Assembly: GCA_964623775.1 (NCBI GenBank)
Contig: CAZUVH010000001.1
Span: forward strand, 220,784 to 284,783
DNA: 64,000 bases
From: an uncultured Candidatus Saccharibacteria bacterium
GTDB lineage: Bacteria > Patescibacteriota > Minisyncoccia > Phycocordibacterales > UBA2100
Reading direction: 5' to 3'
Below are positions 3,012 to 29,894 of the stretch, one piece after another (within the stretch, counting starts at the first letter, position 1; the number at the start of each line of letters is the position of its first letter). The notes below the pieces were generated by a model, which did not search any database, had not been told where the DNA came from, and saw nothing but the letters and a program-made list of their open reading frames with translations. The position numbers and the translations under genes are program-made.

Positions 3012-3343
3012 TGCTACTATTTGTAGATACAAGTTTTAAACTCTATATGGATCAAACAACAAGTCCCGTTTCACCTGCTAGCTCGGAGGTCACCTGGGCC
3101 ATCGCTGCCACTTTTTGGTGGGCGTGGTGCTGGCGCGCAGCGTTAGTAGGAATCGGTGGGGCAATGGCAATAGGCTTCGTATTCGGTTTTGTCGGCGTCA
3201 TACTGGGCGCAGATGTGGTCACGATAACGCTAGTTTCCCAGATCCTAGGGGGTATCCTCGGGATCGTAGTAGGCATATATTTTATAAAATCTCTTCTCAA
3301 TAAGGATTTCAAGACTTTTAAAGTGACTGTAACGCGTAAATAA
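3011..3343 (+). CDS. small hydrophobic membrane protein
   Basis: GTG at 3011 overlaps the murA stop TAG (3009-3011); alternative ATG at 3047; two predicted TM helices (WWAWCWRAALVGIGG..., GILGIVVGIYFI). Confidence 0.45.
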   Translation: MLLFVDTSFKLYMDQTTSPVSPASSEVTWAIAATFWWAWCWRAALVGIGGAMAIGFVFGFVGVILGADVVTITLVSQILGGILGIVVGIYFIKSLLNKDFKTFKVTVTRK

Positions 3344-3475
3344 ATCCCTGCTGATTGGATAAAAAATATGGGGATTGATAAATTCGTACAGTTTGCAAAG
3401 GACAAGGCTAAGGATGTCGTCGATGCACGCAATTTACATCTCAAAGATCCGGCGTTATCAAGTCAGTAAAGTATT

Positions 3476-3883
3476 ATGAGAGCAAATGCAAAGTCAGGTG
3501 GCGTGATGCTTGTGATGATTGGCCCCGTGCTTTCTATGGTCGCCTTCGCCTTCGTCAATCCCCCGATCGGAGGCCTACTTATTTTAATTGGTTTGTTACT
3601 TTGGGCAGCTGGAGTTCTCACGTTGATCTATGTCAAGGCGCGACTCTATGGGATCCGAGGCCTACCCCTTTCATTGGTTTTATTTATCGGTCTCGTTATC
3701 GTCACAATAGCAGATTATATTTCTGGTCTACACGCGCCCAACGACGGCATAAGGGGGCTGGAGCTCATTCCCCTCTTTTTTATCACCTTCATCGCGTTTG
3801 CCTTTTTGAATATCGCGCTTATACGAAATAAGCCAGGTTCTCTTGATGGATTCCTGCAGGCACTTCGGGATTATAAAGATTGA
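3476..3883 (+). CDS. integral membrane protein (4 predicted TM helices)
   Basis: 135-aa hydrophobic ORF; TAAAGT -10-like box 3 nt before the ATG, no SD. Confidence 0.5.
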   Translation: MRANAKSGGVMLVMIGPVLSMVAFAFVNPPIGGLLILIGLLLWAAGVLTLIYVKARLYGIRGLPLSLVLFIGLVIVTIADYISGLHAPNDGIRGLELIPLFFITFIAFAFLNIALIRNKPGSLDGFLQALRDYKD

Positions 3884-3916
3884 CTTGGAAATCCGTGGAG
3901 GCGGTAGAATAACCAC

Positions 3917-4171
3917 ATGAATCAAGCTTGGAAATGGGCGGCCGGAATTCTTGTCGCCATTTTTGTGTTTGGCGGAATGTATTTGAGCGGCTGTGGCGGG
4001 AATATCAATCCGCTTCATTGGACGGTCTCGTGGTACGCGTTTGCGACAGGGCCATCTGAGTATCTTCGCGAATTACATAATCTGTGCTCGTTCAAGCCAG
4101 TTACTCGTGAAGATGTGATGGGCGAGAAAGATCCACCTGCGCCGCTGCCGTCGGTGAATCCGTGGGATTGA
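3917..4171 (+). CDS. small membrane/lipoprotein-like protein
   Basis: 84 aa; N-terminal hydrophobic segment followed by LSGC lipobox-like motif; GGAGG 16 nt upstream. Confidence 0.4.
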   Translation: MNQAWKWAAGILVAIFVFGGMYLSGCGGNINPLHWTVSWYAFATGPSEYLRELHNLCSFKPVTREDVMGEKDPPAPLPSVNPWD

Positions 4172-4232
4172 AACATGTGGCGAGCTTGATTCGATGGAGT
4201 ATAACTGGCAAATCAACTAGAATAGTCACATT

Positions 4233-4314
4233 GGGCATGTGGCGGAATTGGTATACGCGTGCGTCTCAGAAGCGCATCCCGCAAGGGTTGGGAGTTCGAG
4301 TCTCCCCATGCCCA
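4233..4314 (+). tRNA. tRNA-Leu, anticodon CAG, class II with long variable arm
   Basis: Hand fold: acceptor GGGCATG/CATGCCC; D-stem GCG/CGC with loop GAATTGGTATA (G18G19 present); anticodon stem TGCGT/GCGCA, loop CTCAGAA; variable arm TCCCGCAAGGGTT; T-arm GGGAG-TTCGAGT-CTCCC; discriminator A; CCA not encoded. Confidence 0.85.
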
Positions 4315-4315
4315 C
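4297..4315 (+). repeat. 19-bp direct repeat copy 1 (CGAGTCTCCCCATGCCCAC), the 3' end of tRNA-Leu
   Basis: Identical 19-mer recurs at 4454..4472. Confidence 0.8.
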
Positions 4316-4430
4316 TCGCGAAGCGAGTGGCGTTCCGCATGCCTGCGCATGCGGAACTGGGGACGAGAAGGGCGGAGCGATGTCGCAAAAGCTTTTGCGA
4401 CCGCGAGCCGGGGTCGCGGAAATTCCGAGC
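4312..4430 (+). other. four consecutive GC-rich hairpins between tRNA-Leu and its 3'-end duplicate (possible att scar or structured RNA)
   Basis: CCACTCG-cgaag-CGAGTGG; GTTCCGCATGC-ctgc-GCATGCGGAAC (11-bp stem); TCGCAAAAG/CTTTTGCGA 18-bp perfect palindrome; CCGCGAG-ccgggg-TCGCGG; no T-tracts. Confidence 0.4.
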
Positions 4431-4453
4431 GGCGGCGATGAATTATTCGTGAC

Positions 4454-4472
4454 CGAGTCTCCCCATGCCCAC
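4454..4472 (+). repeat. 19-bp direct repeat copy 2 (duplicate of tRNA-Leu 3' end)
   Basis: Exact match to 4297..4315; no upstream tRNA body, so not a second tRNA. Confidence 0.8.
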
Positions 4473-4532
4473 AACAGAAGAGACTCGCCAACCACAACTT
4501 TCGCCGTCTTGGGAAAGGGTTGTTTCGCTTGC

Positions 4533-4540
4533 TGTATAAT
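4533..4540 (+). promoter_or_regulatory. extended -10 promoter element TGTATAAT upstream of the Cache-HAMP gene
   Basis: TGnTATAAT at 4533-4540; weak AAAGGA SD follows; ATG at 4566. Confidence 0.45.
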
Positions 4541-4565
4541 TTAAAAGGACATAGCAAACCCAAAA

Positions 4566-6152
4566 ATGATAAAAAAAATAACCGGGGTTTTTGCCCAAAT
4601 TTTCAACCAAAAAAGTATTAGGACTGAAGTCCTGGCGCTTTTGCTGTGCATTGTCTCAATATCAGTGATTGCCGTTATCTTTTTGGAAGTGAGCTCCATT
4701 TTGATATTGAGGGATAAGGCCCAGGAGACGACTTCTGTCGCCCTGCGCGGGGAGACAGAGAAACTTTTTAATGAACTCACCAAGGCGGCAGCCGAGAAAA
4801 ATGACCTGATTTTCCACGAGATAGCTACTGATGCCAGTAAGGCTGCAAAATACGCTGAAAACATCTTTGAGAACCCCCAAGCCTTTGTGCGGGGTTCCTA
4901 TTGGCGGTATGACGACCAGGTTTTCAGGGGCGACAAAGGGCAATATATGAATGGGGCGGACGATCTCTCTTCGGTTTTCATACCCAATCATGTTGTCATC
5001 ACCGATGATTTGAAAAAAAGAGTGGAATTGAGTGCGTATTTGGAGTTTATCTTTCCAAAAATTCTAGAAAAAAAACCAGATGCAGTAGCGATCTGGATGA
5101 TCGGCCACCAGGGAGAATCGAGATACTATCCTAATATAGGTCTTGGCAACATAGCGCCTCCAGACGAAAAAGTCACCGAAGAGGTTTTTTTCGTAATAGC
5201 TAATCCGGAAAATAACCCGGAGAAAGAAGTTGTTTGGACACCGGTCTATGATGATCCTGCAGGGCAGGGACTAATGATAACTGCCTCGGCGCCGATATAC
5301 ACAAAGCAAAAAGGTTTTATGGGAGTTTTGGGTATTGACGTTACCCTCACAAAAATACTTGAGAACGTTGAGGAATACAGCCCCATAGAGGACGCAGATT
5401 CGTTTATCATTGATGAGCGAGGATACGCCATTGCCCTATCAGACGAAGCGCACCAAGAACTCCTTGGGAGGAGTCCGGAAAAAAAAGAATTCGGCGTAGA
5501 TCTAAATGGAGTTACCAAGGAACTCGACTCAGTCATCAGTGAGATGAAAAAAGGCTCGACGGGCAATAAGACCATAACTTTGTGGGGCAGAGAACAGTAC
5601 ATTTCCTACGCTCCGATGAAGAGCACGAAATTTAGCCTTGGAATGTTCGTAGAAAAATCAGTGATGGAAAAAACAGCTACTGGTCTCGAAAAAGAAATGA
5701 ACAGTTCGGCCTGGGAAATGATTTTTTTCCGTCTCTTTCCCCTTAGTCTACTAATCCTTCTAGTCGCCTGGCTCGTAGTCTATTGGTACATGAACCACCG
5801 AATAACTCAGCCGCTGAGCAGTTTAACGAGGACAGCGGAAGAGTTGTCGGGTGGCAAAATGGAGGTCAGATCGGATATCGTCTCGGAAAATGAAATTGGA
5901 CAACTGGCGAAGGTGTTTAATCAGATGGCCGCGCAGCTCCAAGAGCACTATAGCGGCTTGCAGCAAAAGGTCGAAGAAAGAACAACTGAGGTTGAGAAGA
6001 CCAAAGGCAAAGTAGAGACAGTTAATCAAGAGTTGTTGAAAAAAGTGGAGGAGCTTGATCGAATAAATAAACTGATGATTGACCGGGAACTGAAGATGAT
6101 AGAAATGAAAAAAGAAGTAGAGGCTCTGAGGCAAGCTCAGGGTAAAAATTAA
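4566..6152 (+). CDS. Cache (dCache_1-like) / HAMP domain membrane sensor without recognisable output domain
   Basis: 528 aa; TM1 near the N-terminus, ~330-aa extracytoplasmic domain, TM2 (LFPLSLLILLVAWLVVYWY), canonical HAMP (RITQPLSSLTRTAEELSGG...IGQLAKVFNQMAAQL), then ~70-aa coiled coil; no kinase, MCP signalling or GGDEF domain. Confidence 0.6.
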   Translation: MIKKITGVFAQIFNQKSIRTEVLALLLCIVSISVIAVIFLEVSSILILRDKAQETTSVALRGETEKLFNELTKAAAEKNDLIFHEIATDASKAAKYAENIFENPQAFVRGSYWRYDDQVFRGDKGQYMNGADDLSSVFIPNHVVITDDLKKRVELSAYLEFIFPKILEKKPDAVAIWMIGHQGESRYYPNIGLGNIAPPDEKVTEEVFFVIANPENNPEKEVVWTPVYDDPAGQGLMITASAPIYTKQKGFMGVLGIDVTLTKILENVEEYSPIEDADSFIIDERGYAIALSDEAHQELLGRSPEKKEFGVDLNGVTKELDSVISEMKKGSTGNKTITLWGREQYISYAPMKSTKFSLGMFVEKSVMEKTATGLEKEMNSSAWEMIFFRLFPLSLLILLVAWLVVYWYMNHRITQPLSSLTRTAEELSGGKMEVRSDIVSENEIGQLAKVFNQMAAQLQEHYSGLQQKVEERTTEVEKTKGKVETVNQELLKKVEELDRINKLMIDRELKMIEMKKEVEALRQAQGKN

Positions 6153-6325
6153 AATAGTCATGGCGGCATAGGGAATACCGTACTTGCATACGAAGTATGC
6201 GACAAATTTTGCCACGGGTGCATGGCCAGCTCTTTTGCGGGGCAGACAGGCGCAAATTAATGTGCGATTGACTTTTTTGAAATAAGTGACATAGTAGCGC
6301 AGGACAAATAATGTAGGAGGGTCCG

Positions 6326-8766: not shown

Positions 8767-9201
8767 TTAGTGCGTAAATACAAAGACGAAGATCGATAGA
8801 GCTCCGTTTATGAGGCGATCGAATCCGTCGCTACTGGTCACGACGGTTGCGGCGATGCGCGGATCGACGTGCTTCTTTTCGGGACTCGGCTTTGGGGCGA
8901 TCTCAGGCATCGTGAGCATCGGCACCTTCTTCTCCGGCTTCAATGCCGGCATGCCCATTTCATCGATCGTGACCGGCTGCGGCATGATGGGCTCTTTCGG
9001 TGGCTTTGGCGCCTCGGGTAGCGTAGGGGGCACCAGTGCGGGGATTTTTGTCGGCTGTGCAACGCCAGTGATCGGCGCCGGCTTTTTGGGGGCAGAAGGG
9101 CTGGATTCTGGCACTGGGGCGGTGATGTACCACACATAGGCGACAACGAGCATTGTCGCTGCGAATATCTTCCAGAAGATCTTCGCGTTTTCTTTTGTCA
9201 T
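8767..9201 (-). CDS. Pro-rich membrane-anchored protein (last gene of the VirD4-like operon)
   Basis: N-terminal TM (IFWKIFAATMLVVAYVWYI), then PKKPAP...PKPPKEP...PKPSPEKK region; antisense Gly-rich ORF 8810..9139 is the mirror artefact; the strand choice is inference from operon context. Confidence 0.4.
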   Translation of the reverse strand: MTKENAKIFWKIFAATMLVVAYVWYITAPVPESSPSAPKKPAPITGVAQPTKIPALVPPTLPEAPKPPKEPIMPQPVTIDEMGMPALKPEKKVPMLTMPEIAPKPSPEKKHVDPRIAATVVTSSDGFDRLINGALSIFVFVFTH

Positions 9202-9235
9202 ACCCCGTATACCTGCAGTGTACGCACAATGAGTT

Positions 9236-10510
9236 TTAGCGCAATTGGTGTTGTAGAGTGGTCTCCACGAGCGCTCGGGGCCATCCATAGGCGAGCCGAT
9301 TGAGGGTCACCACCTTCTCGGTGATAGGCGAGGGAGGTGCCTCCTGGGGCGCGAGGCTTCTGCCCGAGAAAACCTCGCTCGTCTTGCCGTCGATCATGAG
9401 TTTTATATAGAAATTGAAACGTGGAAGGCCGAGGAAATCGGCTTCGTGGATCCCCGCCATCTCGCGCGAGAGGATTTTGGCATCCTCGACGCCCACTTCG
9501 AATGCGGCGAGCGTGCCCACGTTGCCGAGGACTGCGTCTTTGATATTTTCCGGCAGCTGCGAGAAATACTGGTTGGTGAGATGCATGCCGAGTCCATATT
9601 TACGTGATTCGCTGAGGAGGGAGGCAAACGTGTCTGTCGCAAAATTCTGAAACTCGTCGACGTAGAGGTAGAAGGGCGCGCGATCATCCGCCGATCTCTT
9701 GGCGCGCTTGAGAGTCGCTGCTTGTAGTCGAGACATAAGGATGAGGCCAAGCATGTGCGCGTTGATCTCGCCGATTTTCCCCTTCGAGAGGTTGCAAAGC
9801 ACGATTTTGCGATTGTCCATCATTTCGCCAAAATCGAACGAGCTCACGTGCTGGCTCATGATGTTGCGCATGAGCGCGTTGTTCATAAAGGGGCCGAATT
9901 TGGACATGAAGTAATTCAGCATTTCGCTCTTGTGGAAGTCCGACGTCTTCTGCATCTGCTTGGTCCAAAAGTCGATGACGAGAGGATCGGTGAGGTGCGC
10001 GCGTTTTTGCCGCTCGAATTCACGATCGACGAAGAGCCGGGGGATCTCGAGAATACTGCCGCCCTCAGGACCAGTCATCACGGTGAGCGCCGCGTTGCGC
10101 AACCAGTGTTCGAATTGCGGACCGATGACACCGGTTTTCTTGGGATCAAAGAGTTTGTAGAAAATCTGAATGCATTCGTTGACCAGGAAATCTTTCTCGA
10201 ATTCGTCGTGCGCCTCGAGGAGATTGAGCCCCATCGGGAATTCCGTATCGCTCGGATTGAAAAGCACCACATCCTGCAGCCGCTCACGCGGGATATGCGC
10301 GAGGAGCCAATCGATCGACTCTCCGTGTGGGTCGATATAGCAGGCGCCATCACCGTTTTCAATATCTTGGAGGCACATGTTTTGGAAGACTGTCGACTTA
10401 CCGACACCCGTCTTACCGATCATGTACATGTGGCGCAGACGATCGGCGGGCTTGAAGCCGATGAGATTTCTTTTGCCGCGATGGACGCTTTCGCCGATGT
10501 GAATGTTCAT
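9236..10510 (-). CDS. VirD4/TraG-like coupling-protein-type P-loop ATPase (TrwB_AAD_bind/DUF87-like), soluble, no N-terminal TM
   Basis: Walker A MIGKTGVGKST; YIDPHGE matches the coupling-protein DPKGE motif; Walker B FYLYVDEFQNF; start overlaps the upstream small gene (ATGA). Confidence 0.65.
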   Translation of the reverse strand: MNIHIGESVHRGKRNLIGFKPADRLRHMYMIGKTGVGKSTVFQNMCLQDIENGDGACYIDPHGESIDWLLAHIPRERLQDVVLFNPSDTEFPMGLNLLEAHDEFEKDFLVNECIQIFYKLFDPKKTGVIGPQFEHWLRNAALTVMTGPEGGSILEIPRLFVDREFERQKRAHLTDPLVIDFWTKQMQKTSDFHKSEMLNYFMSKFGPFMNNALMRNIMSQHVSSFDFGEMMDNRKIVLCNLSKGKIGEINAHMLGLILMSRLQAATLKRAKRSADDRAPFYLYVDEFQNFATDTFASLLSESRKYGLGMHLTNQYFSQLPENIKDAVLGNVGTLAAFEVGVEDAKILSREMAGIHEADFLGLPRFNFYIKLMIDGKTSEVFSGRSLAPQEAPPSPITEKVVTLNRLAYGWPRALVETTLQHQLR

Positions 10511-10746
10511 ATGAGTGAAATGTCGAGTTTTTTCTGGATAAAGTATTCGGACTTGAGCGTCTTGTTGAGTTCTTTCCGTACCGCCTCCGTCTTCGCGTCG
10601 GATTCGATCATGGCGACGAGCGATTGGTGTTCATACTCGATCTTCTTTTCGAGTGCGTGGAGAAGGGCAGGGCTGATATCGCGCGCCACTGAGGCGAGCA
10701 TGTCGCGGCGTTGCTCCACCATCTTTTGTGCGTGAGCGTGTGTCAT
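10507..10746 (-). CDS. small helical protein (79 aa), translationally coupled on both sides
   Basis: Start overlaps the Clp-like stop (ATGA) and its stop overlaps the VirD4-like start (ATGA). Confidence 0.5.
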   Translation of the reverse strand: MTHAHAQKMVEQRRDMLASVARDISPALLHALEKKIEYEHQSLVAMIESDAKTEAVRKELNKTLKSEYFIQKKLDISLI

Positions 10747-12401
10747 ACAGTGCCAAGGAGTGATTGGACTAATAAGGTCTCGCAGGTTTCCTCGACAAAT
10801 CGCTTCACGGGACGTGCTCCGAAGCGGGGATCTGAGAGGTGTGCGATCTTCTCTCGCATCGCGGCGGGTTCGATGTCGAATTGCACGCGATGTTTTGAGA
10901 GACGCTTCTCGATCTTCTTGATCTCAAGCTCGGCGATTGAGACGAGACTCTTGGTAGAGAGGGGATTGAAAATGAGCACAGCATCGAAACGGTTGATGAA
11001 TTCGAGTCGAAAAGTCTTGGCGAGTATGGGCAGGATCTTTTCTCGCACCACGGACTCATCGCCAAGATCGTCGCCATGCTCGAATGCCTGAAGTATTTCC
11101 GCGACACCCGTATTGGATGTCGCCATGACGATCGTGTTGCGTGCGTCGACTGTCTCATTCTGTCCGGAGGTGAGTCGGCCGTCGTCGAGTACCTGGAGGA
11201 AGATGTCGAAGACTTTTGGATGCGCTTTTTCTATTTCGTCGAGCAGGATGAGAGAGTACGGCTCTTTGCGCAACGCATTGGTGAGCGCGCCGCCCTCGTC
11301 GTAGCCCACGTATCCCGGCGGTGAGCCCACGAGCCTCTGCACCGTGTGATCTTGCTGGAATTCCGACATGTCGAATCGAGCAAAGCTCTCCGACCGACCA
11401 AACATTATCTCCGCGACGCACTTAGCGGTCTCTGTCTTGCCGACACCTGAGGGGCCGAGCATGAGGAACGACCCGAGCGGACGATTTGGATTACGTAGTC
11501 CGAGCTTTGCCCGCTGCAGAGTCGCGGCGATTTTCCTGATCGCACTGGATTGATCGACGATCCGCTCGTTGAGCCGCTCCTCGAGATCCTTCACTCCCGC
11601 GAGTTCATTCTGTGAGAGTTGCGATTCCGGTACGCCCGTTTTGGGTGCGACGACATGCGAGATCGCCTCGCGTGTGAGTACTCGCTGACTTTTCGAGGCG
11701 GCGTACGAAATACTTTCGTCGAGCAGGTGGATCGCCGACTGCGGCATTTGCCCAAGAGTGGGGAAGCGCTCGGTGTGCGCCACGATCTCTTGGAGCGATT
11801 CATCCGGTACGATCACGCGATGGCGCGCATTGAGGCGCGGCAATTTCTCCGAAAGTATTCGTGTGTGCTCTCCGGCGCTCTGTCCCTTGAGATTGATCAC
11901 CTCAAATTCCTGCACGAGCGACGGGTGCTCTTGTTCGAGCCAGGCAAATTCATGCGGTTCGAGTGTAAGGACGACATGCACGTGCTGATCTTTGAGCAGC
12001 TTTTTGTACAAGCGGTACATGCGATGCGTGAGCGTCGCATTGCGGGTGATTTCGCGGCCAAAATCGTCGACGAATATCACGCTATGCGGCACCTGCGAAA
12101 ATGCTTCCGCATACCGCTCTTCGAGTGCGCCGTCATTGTCGAGCGCGTAGAGATGCGAAGTATCAAATTGGAGGAGTGCATATGAGTCGTATTTTGCGTT
12201 ACCGCTCATGCGCTTCATCGCGCCATAGACAAGCATTGATTTGCCGATACCGTTTGGCCCCACGATGAGCGCATTATTTTTGATCCTCCGGCCGAAGACG
12301 CGGTAGAGGCGATCGATCTCACTTTCGCGCCCCACGATTTTCGGAAGCCGCGGAGCTTCTTGGCGGAGATTATAGTAGGCGATTTTTTTCGGATCAGTCA
12401 T
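10743..12401 (-). CDS. Clp/Hsp100-family double-AAA+ ATPase lacking N- and M-domains (ClpA/ClpB D2-like C-terminal half)
   Basis: D1 P-loop LIVGPNGIGKS and Walker B VIFVDDFG; D2 LMLGPSGVGKTETAK, GSPPGYVGYDEGG, SLILLDEIEKAHPKVFDIFLQVLDDGRLT are hallmark ClpA/B D2 signatures; only 552 aa. Confidence 0.7.
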   Translation of the reverse strand: MTDPKKIAYYNLRQEAPRLPKIVGRESEIDRLYRVFGRRIKNNALIVGPNGIGKSMLVYGAMKRMSGNAKYDSYALLQFDTSHLYALDNDGALEERYAEAFSQVPHSVIFVDDFGREITRNATLTHRMYRLYKKLLKDQHVHVVLTLEPHEFAWLEQEHPSLVQEFEVINLKGQSAGEHTRILSEKLPRLNARHRVIVPDESLQEIVAHTERFPTLGQMPQSAIHLLDESISYAASKSQRVLTREAISHVVAPKTGVPESQLSQNELAGVKDLEERLNERIVDQSSAIRKIAATLQRAKLGLRNPNRPLGSFLMLGPSGVGKTETAKCVAEIMFGRSESFARFDMSEFQQDHTVQRLVGSPPGYVGYDEGGALTNALRKEPYSLILLDEIEKAHPKVFDIFLQVLDDGRLTSGQNETVDARNTIVMATSNTGVAEILQAFEHGDDLGDESVVREKILPILAKTFRLEFINRFDAVLIFNPLSTKSLVSIAELEIKKIEKRLSKHRVQFDIEPAAMREKIAHLSDPRFGARPVKRFVEETCETLLVQSLLGTV

Positions 12402-12407
12402 ACATTA

Positions 12408-13922
12408 CTAGCCAGCGCGGCGCATGCTTATTCCGTTCAACGTGCGACGCGAAGTGGTCTGTACCGGAGTGTTGTCGTTTTGAGGTGGGGAATAGCGTGT
12501 CGGTCGCAGCACCTCGGGGTTCACAGATTCTCGTGTGGCGACAAAACGTGGAGTGGTCGGGATGCCGAGTGCGCGCTGTAGAATCTCCGCGCCAGTCATG
12601 ACACGTTCGCTCCTCGTCTCCTCTGCGGCAGGTATATCGATTGTCTCAGCTCGCGCAGGCTTTTCATGGGTAGTCTGTGCCGGGAGTCGCTCCCTCTCGA
12701 CCGAACTCCGTACCACATGGTCTTGCTCCCGTGTCTCACCACTGCTTTTGATATTGATTATTTCTTCGTGTCGCGCGCGATGTTCTCCGAGAGGGAGCGA
12801 CTCCCGGACCACTTCAACTTCTGGTTTTTCTGCAATCGAGAGCTCTGTTTCCTCGAGGCCTTTTTCTTCAACAATCCTCTGCTCCATCTTGGGGATCACC
12901 ACCTCGCGTATCAGTCGTGTGATCGGCTCATTGAAAAGGGGAGCTGGCTCGATTTTCACCGCGGCCTCGGGCGACTCAACGGCGAGCTCTTTTGACGCAG
13001 GGCTCGCTTCCTGTTCTTGTTGTGCAAGCTTAGCTTGCTCAACTGGCGGTTCGGCCCCTTTTTCTTCGACGCTCTCGACGAATACGGGGAGTGATTCAAA
13101 AATCTTTTCTCGCACGGGTTCTGGAGTAGGGGATTCGGGAGCCAAAAAGCGAGAGAGCCAGGATTTTTCTGCCACCTCCTCTTTTTCTTCTGCAATTTCT
13201 GGCGCAGCTTCGTTCACGATCGGCGTTTCAAAATACGTTTCAGCGGGTACTCCGCTATAAAAAGTCGTTTCATGCATGTGGGCGACTGTTTCTTGCACTA
13301 CTTCGATCTGCTCCTCCACTACTTCTTGTGGACTTTCGTGCCACTCGACATGGTGGTCCTTCTCGGAGCTTTCAGAAGTCTCTTCACCTTCAAATTCGTC
13401 ATCCTCTTCATCCTCTCCGATCATCGTCGAGCGGATTTCGTAGCTCACACTGCCATCGGGTGCGCGGAGAAGGTGCGTGACATGTAAAATCTCTTCGCCA
13501 GCGCGCTCCTCGATGTAATCGGGGAGGCGAATCATCGATTCACCGCTCTTCAAAAGCTCGAGCGTCTCGTGGTGCGCTGCGCGGTACCCGTCGTCGTACC
13601 CGCTGTCGATTTTCTCAGTGAGCGATTCTCCCGTACGCGTGTCGACTATCCCTTTGCCATCAAACATATACTCACCCGAGCTGCGGTGGGTGAGCTCCCA
13701 ATCCTCGATCTGGCCACCCTTGTGCTCCAAGATGTCTTGCAGCGCCGGGTCGTCTGTCTCTTTTGAAATTTCGGACTCGTCTTCAAAATCTTTCTCGTCA
13801 TTCTCAAAATCCTCCCGTGCTTTTTCAGCCTCGAGGTCTCTCTCGATATCGCGCAAAATCTCCTCATCTGTGTAGTGTTCTGTTTCGGTGGGCATATATA
13901 CAGCATTCAAAACTCCCGACAC
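12408..13922 (-). CDS. highly acidic Glu-rich low-complexity protein (first gene of operon)
   Basis: 504-aa ORF, GTG at 13922 or ATG at 13895; about 25% D/E; 6-nt gap to the Clp-like gene; no domain recognised. Confidence 0.45.
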   Translation of the reverse strand: MSGVLNAVYMPTETEHYTDEEILRDIERDLEAEKAREDFENDEKDFEDESEISKETDDPALQDILEHKGGQIEDWELTHRSSGEYMFDGKGIVDTRTGESLTEKIDSGYDDGYRAAHHETLELLKSGESMIRLPDYIEERAGEEILHVTHLLRAPDGSVSYEIRSTMIGEDEEDDEFEGEETSESSEKDHHVEWHESPQEVVEEQIEVVQETVAHMHETTFYSGVPAETYFETPIVNEAAPEIAEEKEEVAEKSWLSRFLAPESPTPEPVREKIFESLPVFVESVEEKGAEPPVEQAKLAQQEQEASPASKELAVESPEAAVKIEPAPLFNEPITRLIREVVIPKMEQRIVEEKGLEETELSIAEKPEVEVVRESLPLGEHRARHEEIINIKSSGETREQDHVVRSSVERERLPAQTTHEKPARAETIDIPAAEETRSERVMTGAEILQRALGIPTTPRFVATRESVNPEVLRPTRYSPPQNDNTPVQTTSRRTLNGISMRRAG

Positions 13923-23414: not shown

Positions 23415-23654
23415 ATGACAGCAGACGCACTCATTATTCTTGCGGGGACATTGGTCGCAGTAATCCCATTTCTCGGGTTTCCATCATCGTGGGATCGTGT
23501 GTTTTTCTTTGTGCTCGGAGTGTTTGTCGTCGCGCTCGGTATCGCGGTCAGGAGGAAGCAGGTAGCACACCGACCGGAGGTAAAGCCGACACTTTTTGCA
23601 GAAAGCCAGCCAAATCTTTCTGCTCAGAGTGTCCATCATGAAGCAGATAAGTAA
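23415..23654 (+). CDS. small membrane protein (2 predicted TM helices)
   Basis: Start at MTADALII; overlaps the start of the next gene. Confidence 0.35.
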   Translation: MTADALIILAGTLVAVIPFLGFPSSWDRVFFFVLGVFVVALGIAVRRKQVAHRPEVKPTLFAESQPNLSAQSVHHEADK

Positions 23655-24897
23655 ATTTGGGCGCAATAGTTTTGTTGCTATTGGCGGCATCGCGTTTGCG
23701 GGTGCAGGCATGACGATTGCAGCGTACACCGTGCCCTCACTTAGTCCCGAAGTCGCTTTCGTCCGGACACCGGCGGCAGTCGAGCAGGCATTGCCGGGGC
23801 CGCAAGAGCCCGAGAAGCCGGTCGTGACGCACATACCGACGCCTGTCCCCGTAAAAGCGATCTACATGACTCAGTGTGTCGTCGGCACGCCATCGTTTCG
23901 TGCTGATCTCGTGAAGCTCGTCGATGAGACCGAGCTCAATTCGATCATTATTGATATCAAGGATTTTACCGGGGGTATCGCATTTCCTGCGCCTGACGAC
24001 CCGCTTCTCAAGGATTACCGATCGACAAAGTGCGGAGCGGCCGACATGAAGGACTTCGTGCGATCATTGCACGACAAGGGTATTTACGTGATCGGGCGCA
24101 TCACTGTCTTCCAAGACCCTCTGCAGGCTTCCAAATACCCCGAGCTCGCAGTGCAGAAAAAAGGCGGCGGCGTCTGGCACGATCACAAAGGTCTTGCGTT
24201 TATCGACGTGGGTGCAAAAGCGCACTGGGATTACATTGTTGAGCTCTCGCGCTACTCGTATGAAGAAATCGGGTTTGATGAGCTCAATTACGATTACATC
24301 CGCTTTCCTTCGGATGGTCCGATGGACCAGGCAGTGTACAGCCACAGTGTGGCTCTGGGGAAATCAAAATCAGGAGCGCTCGAAGAATTTTTCAAATATC
24401 TCAACGAGAAAGTGAAGCCGATGGGCATCGTTACTTCCGCCGATCTTTTCGGCTACATAACGGTGCATGAAGACGACCTCGGTATTGGGCAGCTGCTCGA
24501 GCGTGCGCTGCCGCATTTCGACTACATAGCCCCGATGGTCTATCCATCTCACTACAACAGCGGCTTTGCGGGTGTGAAGAATGTGAATTCGAATCCGTAT
24601 CTCATCGTGTATGAGTCGATGAAGACGGCGGTCGAGCGCACGATCGCGACGACGACATCGGTCTATTTCCTAGGCGCTGTACCGATCGCTTCTACCTCCC
24701 CGCAGCTCTATCACAAGCCGGCGTATGACAAATCCAAAATGCGCCCGTGGCTCCAGGCATTTGATTATCCGGTGCCATATACGCCAAAGATGGTGGAGGA
24801 TCAGATCAGAGCAAATACCGACTCCGGCCTCGATTCGTATTTTATGTGGGATGCGGCCAATAAATACCGGAGCTTGCGCGAAGTGCTTGCTGAATGA
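23638..24897 (+). CDS. putative glycoside-hydrolase-like TIM-barrel protein (DUF4015/GHL-type), membrane-anchored
   Basis: N-terminal TM anchor, then VKAIYMTQCVVGT...NSIIIDIKD and later YDYIRFP blocks typical of putative-glycoside-hydrolase DUF4015 proteins. Confidence 0.45.
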   Translation: MKQISKFGRNSFVAIGGIAFAGAGMTIAAYTVPSLSPEVAFVRTPAAVEQALPGPQEPEKPVVTHIPTPVPVKAIYMTQCVVGTPSFRADLVKLVDETELNSIIIDIKDFTGGIAFPAPDDPLLKDYRSTKCGAADMKDFVRSLHDKGIYVIGRITVFQDPLQASKYPELAVQKKGGGVWHDHKGLAFIDVGAKAHWDYIVELSRYSYEEIGFDELNYDYIRFPSDGPMDQAVYSHSVALGKSKSGALEEFFKYLNEKVKPMGIVTSADLFGYITVHEDDLGIGQLLERALPHFDYIAPMVYPSHYNSGFAGVKNVNSNPYLIVYESMKTAVERTIATTTSVYFLGAVPIASTSPQLYHKPAYDKSKMRPWLQAFDYPVPYTPKMVEDQIRANTDSGLDSYFMWDAANKYRSLREVLAE

Positions 24898-25183: not shown

Positions 25184-25753
25184 TTATGCGTATTCGGGGA
25201 GCGCCCGTATCGCAGGAAGGAGCTGTGAGATTCGCAGGTCGACGCCGATCGTTTGCCAGGCTTTTCTGACGACAAAAGGATTGCTGTCGGCGGTGGCCAA
25301 ATGGAGGAGTCTGAGAACAGCTTGAGTCTTGCCGCCGCCAAACCCGTCGCGTGTCGTCTCGAGAATTACCTTGTCGAGCACATTGTCGAGTACGTCCCGA
25401 CTCCTTGAGAATATAGGAGTCGCCAATAGTGTACGGGCGAAGTGATCTCTCTTGGCGGGTTCATCCGTGTAATTGAGCCCATCAATCAGCAATTCCCACA
25501 GGTATGCGCGAGTAATGGGAAGCGGATATGTGAGCTCATAAGGAATTTTTTGCATGAGCTCAATCGCCTTGTCGGCCACCTTGGTTATCACCGGTGGATA
25601 AGCGGGAATTCCATAAAAGCGTACGATTTTTTCGGCAACCTTCTTCAGCTCCTCATCATCCGCACTATCTTTAGCAAGGACGGCCTTTCCCACAAATATG
25701 AGCTCGTGGGCTTCGATTTGATTTTTTACCGGCACTTCGGTGACTGTAGTCAT
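25184..25753 (-). CDS. hypothetical protein (189 aa, helical)
   Basis: AAGGAGAA SD 6 nt upstream of the ATG at 25753. Confidence 0.55.
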   Translation of the reverse strand: MTTVTEVPVKNQIEAHELIFVGKAVLAKDSADDEELKKVAEKIVRFYGIPAYPPVITKVADKAIELMQKIPYELTYPLPITRAYLWELLIDGLNYTDEPAKRDHFARTLLATPIFSRSRDVLDNVLDKVILETTRDGFGGGKTQAVLRLLHLATADSNPFVVRKAWQTIGVDLRISQLLPAIRALPEYA

Positions 25754-25889
25754 GACATTCTCCTTGAGGGCCTAGACCCTCTTCTGGTGTCAGTGAGGTC
25801 GAAACCTCGGTTTGTGGACTCTGAAGCGGCGCGAACGACGCTTTGTCCGGGCGCATAAAACCATAAATTCTCCCGAGGAGCAATATTTT

Positions 25890-25898
25890 TGATATACT
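25890..25898 (+). promoter_or_regulatory. TG-extended -10 box (TGATATACT) for a leaderless transcript
   Basis: 6 nt upstream of ATG 25905; no SD. Confidence 0.45.
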
Positions 25899-25904
25899 TT
25901 CTAT

Positions 25905-28139
25905 ATGACACCTGGTCATCAGGATGATGATCGTCGCATTACCTACTTCGCGGCGACGCATACAAGAGGCAAGCGCGAAATGTTTGGCATTCGCGGTATT
26001 GATCGCAGCAAACACATCTACGTGATCGGTAAGACGGGTATGGGCAAATCGACCATGCTCGAAAACCTAGCTATACAGGACATTCAAAACGGGGAGGGCA
26101 TTGCCTTTATCGATCCGCACGGTTCTACCGCGGAAAAGCTCCTCGATTTCGTGCCGCACGATCGCATCAACGATGTCATCTATTTCGCGCCCTTTGATAC
26201 GGATCACCCAGTCGGCTTCAACGTGATGGAGGATGTGGGCTACGACAAGCGTCACCTCGTCGTCTCGGGCCTCATGGGCGCGCTCAAGCGCATCTGGGTG
26301 GACGCGTGGAGCGCTCGTATGGAATATATCTTGCAAAATACGTTGCTCGGACTTCTCGAGTATCCCGGCTCGACGTTGCTCGATGTGAATAGAATGCTCA
26401 CCAACAAAAATTTCCGCAACGCAGTCATTGAGAAGATCACTGACCCGATTGTGAAAGCTTTCTGGACCGACGAATTTGCCAATTTTACCGACACGTACAC
26501 ACGCGAAGCGACGCCGGCGATTCAGAACAAGATCGGCCAATTCGTCGCAAATCCGCTGATACGCAACATCGTCGGACAGCCGACATCCTCGTTTGATATC
26601 CGCAAAGCGATGGACGAAAAAAAGATTTTTATCGTCAACCTCTCAAAGGGCCGCATGGGCGAGACAAATGCATCGCTCCTCGGCTCGATGCTCACGGTCA
26701 AAATCTATCTCGCGTCGATGTCGCGCGCCGATGAACCGCCTACGCGCATGGCCAAGCTGCCACGATTCTTTTTCTACGTCGACGAATTCCAGTCGATGAT
26801 GAACGAAGCTTTCGCCGACATCCTCTCGGAATCGCGCAAATACAAACTCGCTCTCACTCTGGCCAACCAGTACATCGAACAAATGGAAGAGGAGGTGCGC
26901 GATGCCGTTTTCGGCAACGTCGGTACGCTGATCACGTTCCGCGTCGGCCCATTTGATGCGGAGGTGCTGAAGACCGTCTTTGAGCCCACGTTTACAGCGG
27001 AAGATTTGGTGGGGCTCGGGGTCGGGCAGATCTACCTTACCCTCATGATTGACGGCGTGGGCTCGCCGCCGTTTTCTGCCGAAACGATCCCTCCGATCGA
27101 AGCGCCGACGATCTCGTATCGTGAAGATGTCGTGACACAATCGCGTGAGAAATATGCGCGACCGCGCGCCGACGTGGAAGCGACGATCAGTCAAAAGCAA
27201 TCCGAGTTCGTCATGCCTCCGCCGGCACCGAAAGAAAAAAGATATGGAGGAGGGGGAGGCGGATTCAAGCCGACGCCGAGCCCCATAGAGCAGCGGCGCG
27301 CTGCTGCTCCTCGCGAAGAAGCCCTTGGCCGTAGCCAGACGGGCGAGGCGGGGAATTTTGACCGACGAACGGGGGAATTCGTCCGCAGGGAAGAGGAGTC
27401 GAATGATCGTGTCTACGTGCCACCTACTCGTCCGATGGCTTCGATGAATCCGCCGCAAGCAGGCGCCCCGCAGCAAAGCGTCGGGCATGCAGGGCAGGTC
27501 GCACCCCTCGGCCATAGACCTACGGGCGAGGCTCGCCCAGCAACACCACCTCCACCACCGCGCCCAGCGCAACCGACGGAGGAAGAAAAGCGCAATGCGC
27601 TACGCGCTGCGATATCGCTCGCGGGCCGCGCTTCGGCAGCGCCTCCCTCTCCAGCCACGGCAAAATCTCCGGCAGAGCTTCTGCGCGAACGTCTATCGGG
27701 CGGCGGCGGCCCAAAGATCCAGGCTCCCAAGCCTCCATCGCCACCACAGCAGAATCGACCGCAGCCGACTCCTGCTCCACGACCCGTGCACGCACCCCCT
27801 TCACCGCGCACACCACAAGCACAACCGGATCGTTCTTGGGATTCCGCTGCGCCCCTTGGCCGTAGCCAGACCCTCGGGCGTAACCCTATGGGCGAGTCGG
27901 GCGAGGCGCGGCCCGCACAGCCCCGCGAAGATCGACGTGAGCACAATCCAAATCCTCTTGGCCGTAACGCGGGCGAAACGCAACATACCCCCCGCGTAGA
28001 CACGTCTCAACAACAGGGAGCAGCACCGCGTCCGGAGATTCGACCGATGCCACCTGAACCGCCCAAGCAACAAGGAGCTAGCGAGGTCTCAATCGAAATG
28101 TTAAAACGGGTACTCAATGAGGTTAAAGACGATCAATAG
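25905..28139 (+). CDS. VirD4/TraG-like coupling-protein-type ATPase paralog with ~330-aa Pro/Gly/Ala-rich disordered C-terminal tail
   Basis: Walker A VIGKTGMGKST, FIDPHGS, Walker B FFYVDEFQSM; about 40% identity to the 9236..10510 product over the ATPase core; tail carries four PLGR-x(2-4)-GE repeats. Confidence 0.65.
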   Translation: MTPGHQDDDRRITYFAATHTRGKREMFGIRGIDRSKHIYVIGKTGMGKSTMLENLAIQDIQNGEGIAFIDPHGSTAEKLLDFVPHDRINDVIYFAPFDTDHPVGFNVMEDVGYDKRHLVVSGLMGALKRIWVDAWSARMEYILQNTLLGLLEYPGSTLLDVNRMLTNKNFRNAVIEKITDPIVKAFWTDEFANFTDTYTREATPAIQNKIGQFVANPLIRNIVGQPTSSFDIRKAMDEKKIFIVNLSKGRMGETNASLLGSMLTVKIYLASMSRADEPPTRMAKLPRFFFYVDEFQSMMNEAFADILSESRKYKLALTLANQYIEQMEEEVRDAVFGNVGTLITFRVGPFDAEVLKTVFEPTFTAEDLVGLGVGQIYLTLMIDGVGSPPFSAETIPPIEAPTISYREDVVTQSREKYARPRADVEATISQKQSEFVMPPPAPKEKRYGGGGGGFKPTPSPIEQRRAAAPREEALGRSQTGEAGNFDRRTGEFVRREEESNDRVYVPPTRPMASMNPPQAGAPQQSVGHAGQVAPLGHRPTGEARPATPPPPPRPAQPTEEEKRNALRAAISLAGRASAAPPSPATAKSPAELLRERLSGGGGPKIQAPKPPSPPQQNRPQPTPAPRPVHAPPSPRTPQAQPDRSWDSAAPLGRSQTLGRNPMGESGEARPAQPREDRREHNPNPLGRNAGETQHTPRVDTSQQQGAAPRPEIRPMPPEPPKQQGASEVSIEMLKRVLNEVKDDQ

Positions 28140-29049
28140 AGGGGCGGGTGAGCGCAAGCAGCAGAGTGAGTATTTCTTGCCTGCGGAACGCCACAAGGGT
28201 ACTTCCATTTTTCTAAGCAGATGCTCCGCTAAGAAAAATTGGTCGCTCGCTGCGTTCAGACAGGTCCTCGGCTTCAAAACACTCACCCTGCTGCTCACGC
28301 TTTGTTTGGTGGTGCCGGGGGCTGTAAGAGCCGAGATTGTGGTGACGGAAATCATGTACGATCTGCCGACAGGTTCGGATGCGGGCAGGGAATGGATCGA
28401 GGTATATAATTCCGGGCCAACCACTGTTGATCTCTCGGCACTGCGACTTTTTGAAAATGGTACGAATCACAAAATAAGTGGAGCCGGGACGCTGGCGCCG
28501 AATATGTATGCAGTCATCGCAGATAACCCTACGAAATTCAAGATAGATTGGCCGCAGTATTACGGACTACTTTTCGACAGCGCGTTTACACTTGGCAATG
28601 ACGGCGATTCGATCGAATTGCGCGACGCCAGTTCGACCGTGCATAGTGCCGCGACATTCACGAAATCGCTCGGCGCAGCAGGAGACGGAAATTCATTGAA
28701 TAAAGAGCCCAGTGGGTCGACGTTTGCGCCGCGCACTCCAACGCCTGGCGCGATGATGTCTCAAGATGTGGTCGCGCCGAAGACGAAGTCCGTTGTTGAG
28801 CAGAAGGTTGTCCAGAAGGAAACAGATACTACTGCCGTGCCAGAAAAAGAAGACTCGACGATCGCCAATACGCCGGTCGAGGTATCGGACGTCTCGCAAG
28901 TCGCAGCGGCGGTTGTCGCGAGTGACGATGCGACGCCTCCGTGGCAGTGGTGGCTTGCCGCCGGGCTCCTCGCCTCATCGACAGCCGGCGCTATCATATT
29001 TGCTCGCCGCTTCGCAAAAGATGAGTGGGATATTGTTGAAGAGAATTAA
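28117..29049 (+). CDS. lamin tail domain (LTD) protein with N-terminal signal/anchor and C-terminal TM
   Basis: EIVVTEIMYDLPTGSDAGREWIEVYNSGPTTVDLSALRL matches the LTD (PF00932) consensus; hydrophobic LTLLLTLCLVVPGAVRA and C-terminal WWLAAGLLASSTAGAIIF; the ATG overlaps the upstream gene by 23 nt and the true start is uncertain. Confidence 0.6.
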   Translation: MRLKTINRGAGERKQQSEYFLPAERHKGTSIFLSRCSAKKNWSLAAFRQVLGFKTLTLLLTLCLVVPGAVRAEIVVTEIMYDLPTGSDAGREWIEVYNSGPTTVDLSALRLFENGTNHKISGAGTLAPNMYAVIADNPTKFKIDWPQYYGLLFDSAFTLGNDGDSIELRDASSTVHSAATFTKSLGAAGDGNSLNKEPSGSTFAPRTPTPGAMMSQDVVAPKTKSVVEQKVVQKETDTTAVPEKEDSTIANTPVEVSDVSQVAAAVVASDDATPPWQWWLAAGLLASSTAGAIIFARRFAKDEWDIVEEN

Positions 29050-29849
29050 ATCCCGGAAGAATTGATCAGTCGCAAGAATTCCTTTTCTGTCTCAGGTGTG
29101 ATTGCTTGGAAGAATTGGGTCATAAGTGTATCGAGCCCCGTGTCCTCAATATAATGTTCGCGAGCATATTTCAAGTGATTCGCTGTAAACTCCTCTGCAC
29201 CTTTAAATCCGAAGTAATTTTTAAGTTGTGCCATTCGCTCCGCTATTTCATTCGGGCTACTCATGTACGCCTGTAGTCCCCCCGAAATTTTACCGTCCGC
29301 CTCTGCTTCAACTGCAAGAGGGTCAAAAAGTTGCGCACGATCAGAATCAGCTTTTGTATATGTGATCAGATCAAAATTAAATCCGGGAGCAAAGTATTCG
29401 CGCAAACCCCCATAACGTCGTACCTTGTGGCCTTTTTCATGTGCCTCTACAGCACTCATCTTTTTTGGGTCCTGCAGTTTCCCGTGCGGCATCCATGCAG
29501 CCGGCATAGTGCTACTATCGGGACCCCTCTCTTCAAAATTTATCGGAGTAGAGGTCTCAATTTCTTCCAAGCTCTTTAAAAATTTCTGGGTTATCTCTTC
29601 GCGTGTTTTGTGTATATATGGTTCAGCCGGACCCCGTTTAATTTTTCCCGCCTCATCCTTAATTAGCTTTCTTCGCATCGAAGGTCGGCCAAGCTCCGCT
29701 TTCTCCAAAAGATCGATCACCTGCTTTTGAATCACAGGGTTTCTGAGTCGTTGGAAGAGAAGAAGCGATTCATTGCCTTCGTAATTTGCTTGTCTCGCCA
29801 CTTCCTCCATAGAAGGTTCTTTTGGTGTATTTCGTGGTATTTCTCGCAT
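29046..29849 (-). CDS. hypothetical protein with HExxH motif (possible metallopeptidase)
   Basis: VEAHEKGH motif; TATACT box 8 nt upstream of the ATG; convergent 4-nt overlap with the LTD gene. Confidence 0.45.
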   Translation of the reverse strand: MREIPRNTPKEPSMEEVARQANYEGNESLLLFQRLRNPVIQKQVIDLLEKAELGRPSMRRKLIKDEAGKIKRGPAEPYIHKTREEITQKFLKSLEEIETSTPINFEERGPDSSTMPAAWMPHGKLQDPKKMSAVEAHEKGHKVRRYGGLREYFAPGFNFDLITYTKADSDRAQLFDPLAVEAEADGKISGGLQAYMSSPNEIAERMAQLKNYFGFKGAEEFTANHLKYAREHYIEDTGLDTLMTQFFQAITPETEKEFLRLINSSGI

Positions 29850-29894
29850 CACGGCTCAGTATACCCGTTCCTTTTCTTGGTGTAATCTGGGGTT

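Follow-up and report, generated by a model that had tools for sequence, protein, structure and literature searches.

A soluble VirD4-like ATPase with a disordered tail and its membrane-anchored surface partner in a Saccharibacteria genome

Introduction

What does a VirD4-like ATPase do when its gene runs directly into that of a surface protein? The question arises from a stretch of 64,000 nucleotides, the window, which is part of contig CAZUVH010000001.1 of an uncultured Candidatus Saccharibacteria bacterium (assembly GCA_964623775.1, positions 220,784 to 284,783 of the forward strand). The window encodes a soluble VirD4/TrwB/DotL-like P-loop ATPase of 744 aa (25905..28139, plus strand) and, overlapping its end, a 310-aa surface protein with a lamin tail domain (LTD; 28117..29049, plus strand), referred to here as the partner. 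A 2025 survey by Quiñonero-Coronel et al. counts 5,713 VirD4-like homologs in 2,918 Patescibacteria genomes, about two per genome, and leaves their function open (PMC12102498). The ATPase very probably belongs to that set of orphan homologs. The tail architecture, the downstream partner with an LTD or helix-hairpin-helix (HhH) domain, and the cytosolic motif of the partner are not described in the parts of the survey consulted. A literature search returned only this survey, with its catalogue of orphan homologs; no paper was found on the helices of the ATPase tail, on the LTD/HhH partner, or on the motif at its cytosolic end.

One orphan family now has a defined architecture: a motor without a transmembrane (TM) domain, a disordered tail with three conserved helices, and a conserved partner gene whose product has a short cytosolic motif that does not vary. 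The pairing of the two genes across many ultra-small bacteria of the Candidate Phyla Radiation (CPR) may hint at the role of these widespread orphan motors. We lean slightly towards reading the ATPase as a domesticated coupling-protein motor that a surface receptor, perhaps a DNA-binding one, brings to the membrane.

Conservation of the gene pair

The pairing was surveyed at 80 loci from different GTDB species, all of them Kaiserbacteria/Paceibacteria-type genomes. An LTD match by tblastn lies just downstream of the ATPase gene, on the same strand, at 57 of the 80 loci. Loci without such a match encode a signal-peptide protein in the same position, with another ectodomain and an ending composed of WW, a Gly/Ala-rich TM helix, RR, and K-x-E-W-D-I-(I/V)-E-E. 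Where the ATPase gene is complete, a partner follows downstream on the same strand at 67 of 72 species loci. The VirD4-like plus LTD pairing, whose recurrence in related genomes the initial annotation had put forward for checking, is found down to about 50% ATPase identity. Two of the remaining loci are L046, which has too little downstream sequence, and L024, in which no partner open reading frame (ORF) was detected within about 1.4 kb downstream.

The distance from the ATPase stop to the partner start is commonly -4, +3, or +9 nt and reaches +24 nt. At seven loci a single gene is inserted. A representative with 50.7% identity has a signal peptide plus LTD gene 44 nt past the ATPase stop. At a locus with 45% identity, the gene order is Mur ligase, TP_methylase, DUF4015, ATPase, and an LTD-PKD-LTD protein; this partner lies 287 nt downstream and has no acidic tail. 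In the window, the ATPase and the partner are probably co-transcribed. A promoter and terminator scan of positions 25600-29300 gave counts equal to chance and is uninformative; it placed no plus-strand site between the two genes, which is compatible with co-transcription.

The association was also followed in the reciprocal direction, from LTD proteins to the ATPase. The metagenome scan was seeded with 11 close partner sequences (alignment A4), as the 59-sequence alignment A1 was too divergent. It yielded 80 metagenome loci, including many unrelated LTD proteins that form a natural control, and the counts cover loci in which an ATPase was detected or the upstream sequence measured 2.5 kb or more. 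Where the LTD protein ends in a C-terminal TM helix and an acidic-aromatic tail ([DE][WYF]x[IL][IV][ED]), the ATPase is upstream in 30 of 31 cases. For LTD proteins without the C-terminal TM helix the count is 1 of 10, and that one is a scoring artefact. Motif-bearing partners differ from all other LTD proteins with a Fisher p of 5e-5, and the ATPase cores of this test range from 88% down to 51% identity.

A Pfam scan of 59 partners found the LTD in 49, a following PKD domain in 36, a ComEA-type HHH_3 domain in five, and Big_1-like domains in some. The HHH_3 domains stand in the place of the LTD in orthologous partners, with E-values down to 1e-21. Scans of individual partners show a signal peptide, then an LTD, HHH_3, or Big_1-like Ig module; PKD and a weak LTD-like domain come next, and a stalk leads on to the TM helix with its tail. 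The N-terminal module of the ectodomain is variable, and the TM helix and W-x-I-(I)-E-E tail are constant. The LTD is not the constant part of the partner, being swapped in some species; the constant part is the C-terminal TM helix with its cytosolic tail. Across the metagenome loci the tail drifts from E-W-D-I-I-E-E to E-Y-T-I-I-E-E, D-F-E-I-I-D, and D-I-E-I-L-E.

The partner protein

The partner of the window is a Sec-exported, C-terminally anchored LTD surface protein according to its ORF, Pfam matches, and AlphaFold2 (AF2) model. Its ATG lies inside the ATPase ORF and the two genes share 23 nt, so that the next ORF does overlap the ATPase stop as had been stated. The overlapping start at ATG 28117 is plausible from the sequence comparisons. 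It was the choice of the gene caller in an independent assembly as well, and the N-terminus MRLKTINR resembles the ortholog starts MKLKAISR and MAFVKTNR, which run directly into the hydrophobic core. The MRLKTINR stretch is also the alternative frame of the last ATPase codons, and the resemblance is possibly a by-product of the overlap. TTG 28177 is an alternative start.

In the window, positions 28141..28280 hold an insertion of about 47 aa between MRLKTINR and the hydrophobic core, as compared with the closest orthologs P0122-P0126 (56-69% identical). The insertion would mean either an unusually long N-region of the signal peptide or else a start at the downstream TTG 28177. A conserved basic N-terminus of the partner (K-F-L-R-K-..) was considered as a feature and rejected, since by hand translation it appears to be an alternative-frame reading of the codons for the ATPase terminal helix. 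In the window (28117..28139) and in the orthologous overlaps of L009-L028, this N-terminal likeness is no independent evidence for a start codon.

The hydrophobic core of the signal peptide and its AxA-type site, KTLTLLLTLCLVVPGAVRA|E, occupy 28273..28332 (plus strand), with Kyte-Doolittle (KD) windows above 1.6 at aa 49-62 and an AF2 helix at aa 53-65. The site reads ..GAVRA|EIVV, and the orthologs have AxA|Q directly before the LTD. This N-terminal segment is probably a cleaved signal peptide and not an anchor. Of the hydrophobic anchors proposed for both ends, the C-terminal one stands, as a TM helix at aa 276-299, and the N-terminal one probably falls.

The LTD ectodomain (aa 71-206, 28327..28734, plus strand) matches Pfam LTD (PF00932) with 49.7 bits (cutoff 34.3; E = 5.5e-13). 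AF2 models a beta-sandwich at aa 74-206 with a predicted local distance difference test (pLDDT) score of 92-96. The best Foldseek matches in the PDB are the tails of lamins B1, A/C, and B2, with template-modelling (TM) scores by target of 0.59-0.63 for lamins B1 and A/C. These matches agree with the initial annotation of the next gene as an LTD surface protein. The window's own partner has no HHH_3 in the Pfam scan, and none of the NCBIfam models matches it.

A low-complexity extracellular stalk follows at aa 207-275 (28735..28941, plus strand), unconserved, with pLDDT 47-57 and no secondary structure in the AF2 model. The Gly/Ala/Ser-rich TM helix, WW-LAAGLLASSTAGAIIFA-RRF, comprises aa 276-299 (28942..29013, plus strand) as an AF2 helix. 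The cytosolic tail AKDEWDIVEEN (aa 300-310, 29014..29046, plus strand) is defined by alignments A1 and A2. In the 59-partner alignment W304 is invariant, and W278 and I306 are present in at least 90% of the sequences.

The C-terminal motif occurs once in the window. As a regular expression it has 62 matches in 1.05 Mb of related loci, of which 59 are the partner and the other three are spurious. No member of a collection of 5.8 billion proteins matched a profile (A2) built on the final 50 residues of the partner at E <= 1e-3; the profile is too short for a collection of that size. A general C-terminal sorting signal of the LPXTG, PEP-CTERM, or GlyGly-CTERM type was considered and rejected: the acidic K-x-E-W-D-I-V-E-E comes after the TM helix and RR, and only a single such protein is present in the 64 kb.

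The ATPase

The ATPase consists of a core up to aa ~432 and a disordered tail from there to aa 744. Walker A (GKTGMGKS, aa 42-49, 26028..26051, plus strand) and Walker B (FFYVDE, aa 289-294, 26769..26786, plus strand) were identified in the translation. The Walker A columns and V292, D293, and E294 of Walker B are invariant in an alignment of 118 sequences, from which the AF2 model was also built. The model has pLDDT 85-97 over aa ~50-290 and a helical block at aa 113-237.

Pfam places the ATPase with TrwB_AAD_bind (35.2 bits, cutoff 20.5) and T4SS-DNA_transf (25.1 bits, cutoff 20.1), and FtsK_SpoIIIE gives no match at E <= 0.01. By phmmer, TrwB is its sole sequence relative in the PDB (E = 3e-4). 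Foldseek against the PDB ranks DotL (6sz9_A, 5e-8), Cagβ (8dol), and TrwB (1e9s, 1gl6, 1gki), then HerA; the coupling proteins match with probability 1.0 and TM-scores by target of 0.45-0.55, at 11-16% identity. The predicted fold is that of a type IV coupling protein within the FtsK-HerA superfamily.

The ATPase is nevertheless not filed as a canonical coupling protein, because both the N-terminal membrane domain and the context of a type IV secretion system (T4SS) or relaxase are missing. It scores far under every curated cutoff of the NCBIfam coupling-protein models, for example 42.6 against 366. It contains no TM segment: the top 19-residue KD window (KD19) reaches 1.46 and lies in a beta-strand of the core. 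The N-terminal TM domain of coupling proteins is absent, with Walker A already at residue 42. A defence-system reading was dropped, as the PADLOC matches are weak only (mad8 at 5e-15, HerA).

The window also encodes a first VirD4-like paralog of 424 aa on the minus strand (9236..10510), in a different operon, without a tail and likewise without a TM segment. It matches Pfam TrwB_AAD_bind above the gathering score. BLASTP aligns it with the ATPase core along 416 aa at 39% identity (E = 1e-100), and the alignment stops exactly where the tail starts. Both the shared core and the description of the ATPase as a second, tail-bearing VirD4-like paralog, given in the initial annotation, are therefore upheld by ORF, Pfam, Foldseek, and the 39% identity.

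A TATACT hexamer lies 8 nt before the ATPase ATG (25890..25907), and no sequence resembling a Shine-Dalgarno site is found at the usual spacing. Judged by these letters, the transcript could be leaderless or have a very short leader. The hexamer is absent from the output of the consensus promoter scan.

The disordered tail of the ATPase

The C-terminal tail (27198..28136, plus strand) is disordered by composition, AF2, and conservation, and has a net charge of +11. Over aa ~431-744 it contains 18.5% Pro, 11.5% Ala, 10.8% Arg, and 8.9% Gly. It is rich in Pro, Ala, Arg, and Gly, where a richness in Pro, Ala, Gly, and Gln had been noted. Mean column conservation is 0.24 in the tail versus 0.90 in the core. 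All ~180 orthologs have a tail, with lengths of 140-400 aa.

Four islands of the tail are conserved in 183 orthologs: aa 431-448 beside the core, 563-575, 586-597, and 726-738. The pLDDT of the tail is mostly below 50. The exceptions are three short helices at aa 559-574, 589-597, and 730-741, each of which falls on one of the last three islands; elsewhere the values are near or below 50. Helix 1 (aa 559-574, 27579..27626, plus strand; R-x-A-L-R-A-A-I-x-x-A-R) has a conservation of 0.6-0.9 in the 183 orthologs. Helix 2 (aa 586-597, 27660..27695, plus strand; P-x-R-S-P-A-D/E-I/L-L-R-E) has 0.7-0.99. The C-terminal helix (aa 726-741, 28080..28127, plus strand) reads SEVSIEMLKRVLNEVK in the window. 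It has the family consensus G-E-V-S-x-E-x-L-x-R-V-L-x-G (short form E-V-S-x-E-x-L-K/R-x-V-L) and is retained in orthologs with only 50% core identity. On alignment and model, the conserved elements of the tail are these three predicted short helices, which the initial annotation had overlooked.

That annotation had stressed four spaced repeats in the tail. The LG[RH] units number five and occupy four sites (aa 473, 534, 650/656, and 684); a DNA repeat search picks them up as well. Copy 1 is ALGRSQTGEA (27322..27349, family D1) and copy 2 is PLGHRPTGEA (27505..27532). Copies 3 and 4 overlap in tandem as PLGRSQTLGRNPMGESGEA (27853..27898), and copy 5 is PLGRNAGE (27954..27977, family D2); all are on the plus strand. 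At the DNA level, a 28-nt repeat stands at 27322, 27505, 27853, and 27871, with a shorter copy at 27954, and the copies are 75-100% identical. Tandem Repeats Finder detects no array in the tail, the LG(R/H)..GE repeats being dispersed. The repeats are real and non-random: none of 20,000 composition-preserving shuffles reaches four LG(R/H)..GE copies, and the maximum is two. They are not a family trait, as only 3 of 119 other orthologs have even one [AP]LG[RHK] unit and only two of the 119 match the wider LG..GE pattern. PPPPPRP is present in the tail as described, and the run given as five glycines is actually six.

The closest relatives have copy 1 alone, inside a locally conserved block EALG[RH]xxTxEAG[TN]FDRRTGEFVRREE, and P0002 carries EALGHRPTDEAGTFDRRTGEFVRREE at the position of this copy. 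Judging from these alignments, copy 1 is ancestral in the close relatives. The repeats as a set are best described, on the same comparison, as a recent, lineage-specific amplification in an unconstrained spacer and not as the functional core of the tail. It is very unlikely that they are functional short linear motifs, such as multivalent docking sites, and the key feature of the tail. The shuffle test would suit such a role, as would the survival of the peptide pattern through several synonymous and non-synonymous differences among the copies. Against it, the repeats are missing from 116 of 119 orthologous tails and lie in spacer segments that cannot be aligned across the family, their sites have pLDDT below 50, and the identity of the DNA copies is consistent with recent duplication.

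The possibility that the tail is an assembly or frameshift artefact, raised at the outset, has been refuted and deserves virtually no credence. In favour of an artefact, the GC content climbs to 0.587 over 26-28 kb, and long shadow ORFs lie on the opposite strand. The GC rise is due to Pro, Ala, Gly, and Arg codons. An identical 744-aa protein was assembled independently from two runs, SRR12822863 and SRR12808459, and every ortholog has a tail that, read in the same frame, finishes with the conserved C-terminal helix. The tail is genuine.

Proposed function and alternatives

In the reading that we lean towards, the ATPase would be a chromosomal descendant of type IV coupling proteins (VirD4/TrwB/DotL lineage, FtsK-HerA P-loop superfamily). 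It would have lost the N-terminal TM domain and gained a disordered C-terminal tail of ~310 aa with three conserved short helices. The partner would be exported by Sec and would comprise a ligand-binding ectodomain, a floppy stalk, one Gly/Ala-rich membrane helix, and a cytosolic tail of 10-15 residues with an invariant Trp. This cytosolic tail (K-x-E-W-D-I-(I/V)-E-E) would bring the ATPase, presumably a hexamer, to the membrane and thereby take the place of the lost anchor. The disordered tail of the ATPase and its terminal helix would serve as a flexible tether or an adaptor-docking arm. The suggestion in the initial annotation that the ATPase is tethered near the surface protein fits the data, and comparative genomics supports the idea of coupling.

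Extracellular DNA would be the most likely ligand, because HhH replaces the LTD in orthologs and both domains alternate in secreted DNases, and the pair would then form a DNA-capture and translocation module. The LTD and duplicate-HhH domains occupy equivalent positions in secreted DNases and possibly have an analogous function in DNA binding (PMC4486849). Adhesion to the host surface is the main alternative to DNA. If the DNA-receptor reading is true, the pair would represent a new route of nucleic-acid acquisition for bacteria that are unable to synthesise nucleotides, and a clear case of conjugation machinery exapted to a core chromosomal function. A more far-reaching version, which we regard as rather unlikely, is a two-component CPR trans-envelope machine. 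Here the motor, seated on the W-x-I-I-E-E tail of an LTD/HhH-PKD receptor, would couple the capture of DNA or a host ligand to ATP-driven translocation, and DUF4015 would maybe be a cell-wall hydrolase. Such a machine would let the cells scavenge nucleotides or interact with a host without recourse to the canonical T4SS and Com systems.

Several observations weigh against recruitment of the motor by a DNA receptor. The partner is clearly missing downstream at L015, L053, and L079, where the terminal helix of the ATPase is present, and L079 is the closest relative by core identity (90%), yet partnerless at the locus. About nine metagenomic partners that adjoin the ATPase were scored as lacking the acidic-aromatic tail, of which two carry variant forms. 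No fusion of the ATPase and partner (LTD) genes occurs among 270 homologs. Contact between the two proteins is putative, and as the terminal helix of the ATPase and the partner tail are both acidic, direct contact of helix and tail is not obvious. DUF4015 and the epimerase are syntenic too, and the linkage is perhaps partly a frozen gene order. The Ig-like module that replaces the LTD in some partners favours adhesion over DNA binding, and the LTD of ExeM is dispensable for extracellular DNA degradation in vivo (PMC6085458). A single-pass helix is unable to form a DNA channel, and further components are needed. Co-variation of the ATPase terminal motif with the partner tail was also looked for: in L153 and L156, ATPases ending in ..PGxNxKF go with partners without the acidic-aromatic tail, but so do five to six ATPases that have the normal helix.

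In a different explanation, which we consider unlikely, the ATPase would be an ordinary, remotely encoded coupling protein of the VirB4-type T4SS that Patescibacteria have elsewhere in the genome, and the LTD protein a surface adhesin or a substrate of that system, with its acidic C-terminus as the recognition signal. Recognition of C-terminal signals by coupling proteins is well established. The fold and Pfam family are indeed those of coupling proteins, a distant relative on an Embleya plasmid sits in a genuine monoderm T4SS cluster, and the survey reports that coupling-protein genes are often distant from virB4 (PMC12102498). The ATPase lacks the N-terminal TM domain that docks to the channel, however, and no T4SS gene is found within the window. 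According to the survey, just 148 of the 5,713 homologs in Patescibacteria lie close to virB4; the homolog of Ca. S. epibionticum is non-essential, unlike the T4SS genes (PMC12102498). The signal peptide of the partner also marks it as Sec-exported and so not a T4SS substrate of the ordinary kind.

Somewhat less likely again is that the adjacency reflects conserved gene order in a cell-envelope island without any coupling, and that the ATPase acts in the cytoplasm on something unrelated, such as the remodelling of DNA or proteins. The synteny of DUF4015 (upstream at 43 of 80 loci) and the epimerase (downstream at 60 of 80), the three partnerless loci, and the lack of fusions among the 270 homologs would all fit. 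The adjacency of ATPase and partner is, however, the most conserved of these linkages (67/72), with frequent start/stop overlaps, and it outlasts both the ectodomain swaps and 50% divergence of the ATPase. The association tracks the C-terminal TM helix and tail and not the LTD itself (30/31 versus 1/10), and an invariant Trp in a cytosolic tail of ~10 residues implies a cytoplasmic binding partner.

Comparison with known systems

Type IV coupling proteins: The ATPase resembles VirD4, TrwB of R388, DotL, and Cagβ in its P-loop domain with a helical insertion and in its Walker A and B motifs. It differs in having no N-terminal TM segment and no T4SS or relaxase neighbours, and in being chromosomal with 85% cross-species conservation. 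The long disordered tail and the dedicated single-pass partner are further differences.

TraD and DotL tails: The disordered C-terminal tail of F-plasmid TraD binds TraM, and the DotL tail binds adaptors (IcmSW/LvgA). The ATPase tail would resemble these two as a disordered extension after a coupling ATPase that ends in a conserved, partly acidic docking motif. There is no similarity in tail sequence, and the ATPase tail has three conserved helices.

ComEA: ComEA is anchored N-terminally. Five of the 59 orthologous partners share its HHH_3 domain, and the partner is likewise membrane-anchored and outward-facing. In contrast, the partner of the window has an LTD and a C-terminal anchor with a conserved cytosolic tail, and neither comEC nor comFA is nearby.

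FtsK and SpoIIIE: These proteins belong to the same superfamily as the ATPase, and a long, disordered, Pro/Gln-rich linker joins their motor to the membrane part. In the ATPase, the motor is N-terminal, the linker is C-terminal, and the membrane element is a separate protein.

Secreted nucleases: The LTD accessory domains of ExeM and halophile DNases are extracellular, interchangeable with HhH, and accompanied by PKD (PMC4486849; PMC6085458), as in the partners. The partner differs from them in having no nuclease domain.

Neighbourhood of the pair

The window neighbourhood is one of cell-envelope biosynthesis, with genes for MurA-like proteins and Mur ligases, DUF4015, epimerases, and glycosyltransferases. 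Genes for VirB4, VirB6, relaxase, type IV pilus, and ComEC were not found in the 64 kb, and T4SS (VirB4 etc.) or relaxase genes were not found in the flanks of the related loci either. The upstream neighbour is a DUF4015 putative glycosyl hydrolase (23596..24897, plus strand; Pfam 3.6e-86). DUF4015 also precedes the ATPase with 45% identity and is a possible third member of the module.

Median identity across the 80 species is 85% for the ATPase core, 58% for DUF4015 and the epimerase, and 36% for the LTD partner. Both flanking genes are present at 35 loci, and in every one of these the ATPase exceeds the two of them in conservation. The high identity of the core against that of its neighbours indicates a constrained chromosomal gene and not cargo of a mobile element.

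Opposite-strand genes at 25184..25753 and 29046..29852, both on the minus strand and without family matches, flank the pair in the window and are common only to L079 among the 80 loci. They look like lineage-specific insertions into the order DUF4015, ATPase, partner, epimerase. L079, which shares both of them, is also among the three loci without an LTD partner.

The paralog operon (minus strand, 8767..13922) is tightly packed. It encodes a very acidic protein of 504 aa without a Pfam match, a ClpB-like AAA+ protein (10743..12401), a 79-aa ORF, the paralog, and a small membrane/Pro-rich protein, for which 8767..9288 is the longest ORF and which was called with 144 aa in another assembly. In L171, a tail-bearing relative is likewise followed by a ClpB-like gene.

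Wider relatives

A scan of 1.84 billion cluster representatives found 21,220 related clusters, and 5,690 matched at E <= 1e-30. Of the 150 top-ranking representatives at 50% identity clustering, 84 have an N-terminal core and a tail of at least 100 aa, and 44 have an N-terminal extension of ~350-450 aa before the core.

Plasmids: Distant relatives (25-40% identity) are encoded on 389 plasmids, whose hosts include Streptomyces, Bacillus, and haloarchaea. On the Embleya plasmid an 812-aa protein has the homologous domain as its C-terminal part. The gene lies inside a monoderm T4SS cluster that further encodes a PrgI-family protein, a VirB4-like ATPase, a relaxase, and an NlpC/P60 hydrolase. This context supports descent from conjugative coupling proteins. 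A soluble homolog of 395 aa with 40.6% core identity (E = 4e-84) is encoded on the Sulfitobacter mediterraneus plasmid NZ_CP081110.1 (L084, 99994-101181). It adjoins transposases and a recombinase, is far closer than the other plasmid matches, and may reflect horizontal transfer of the CPR-type soluble form.

Phages: The core (25905..27200) matches phrog_5156, a family of unknown function, at 5e-58, and also gp156 of Bacillus jumbo phage G (29% identity) and CP-51-like phage proteins. The ATPase family is accordingly present in large phages of Firmicutes as well.

Sister subfamily: Soluble, VirD4-like ATPases of a sister subfamily carry disordered tails that end in ..PGQxΦKF (L167 at 2732-6250, L170, and L171; P0277, P0286, P0289, P0298, and P0323). 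They have a DUF8128 gene immediately before the ATPase and no LTD partner. The N-terminal extension of the 44 representatives and the first ~410 positions of phrog_5156 are suspected to be DUF8128.

P0299: This homolog of 981 aa has an acidic-aromatic motif, ..EEDDDFEIVIMD.., at residues ~690-700 inside its own disordered tail and keeps the usual terminal helix, ..REVPEDLLKSILE. By its sequence, the internal motif could be due to chance or could be an internalised partner-like motif.

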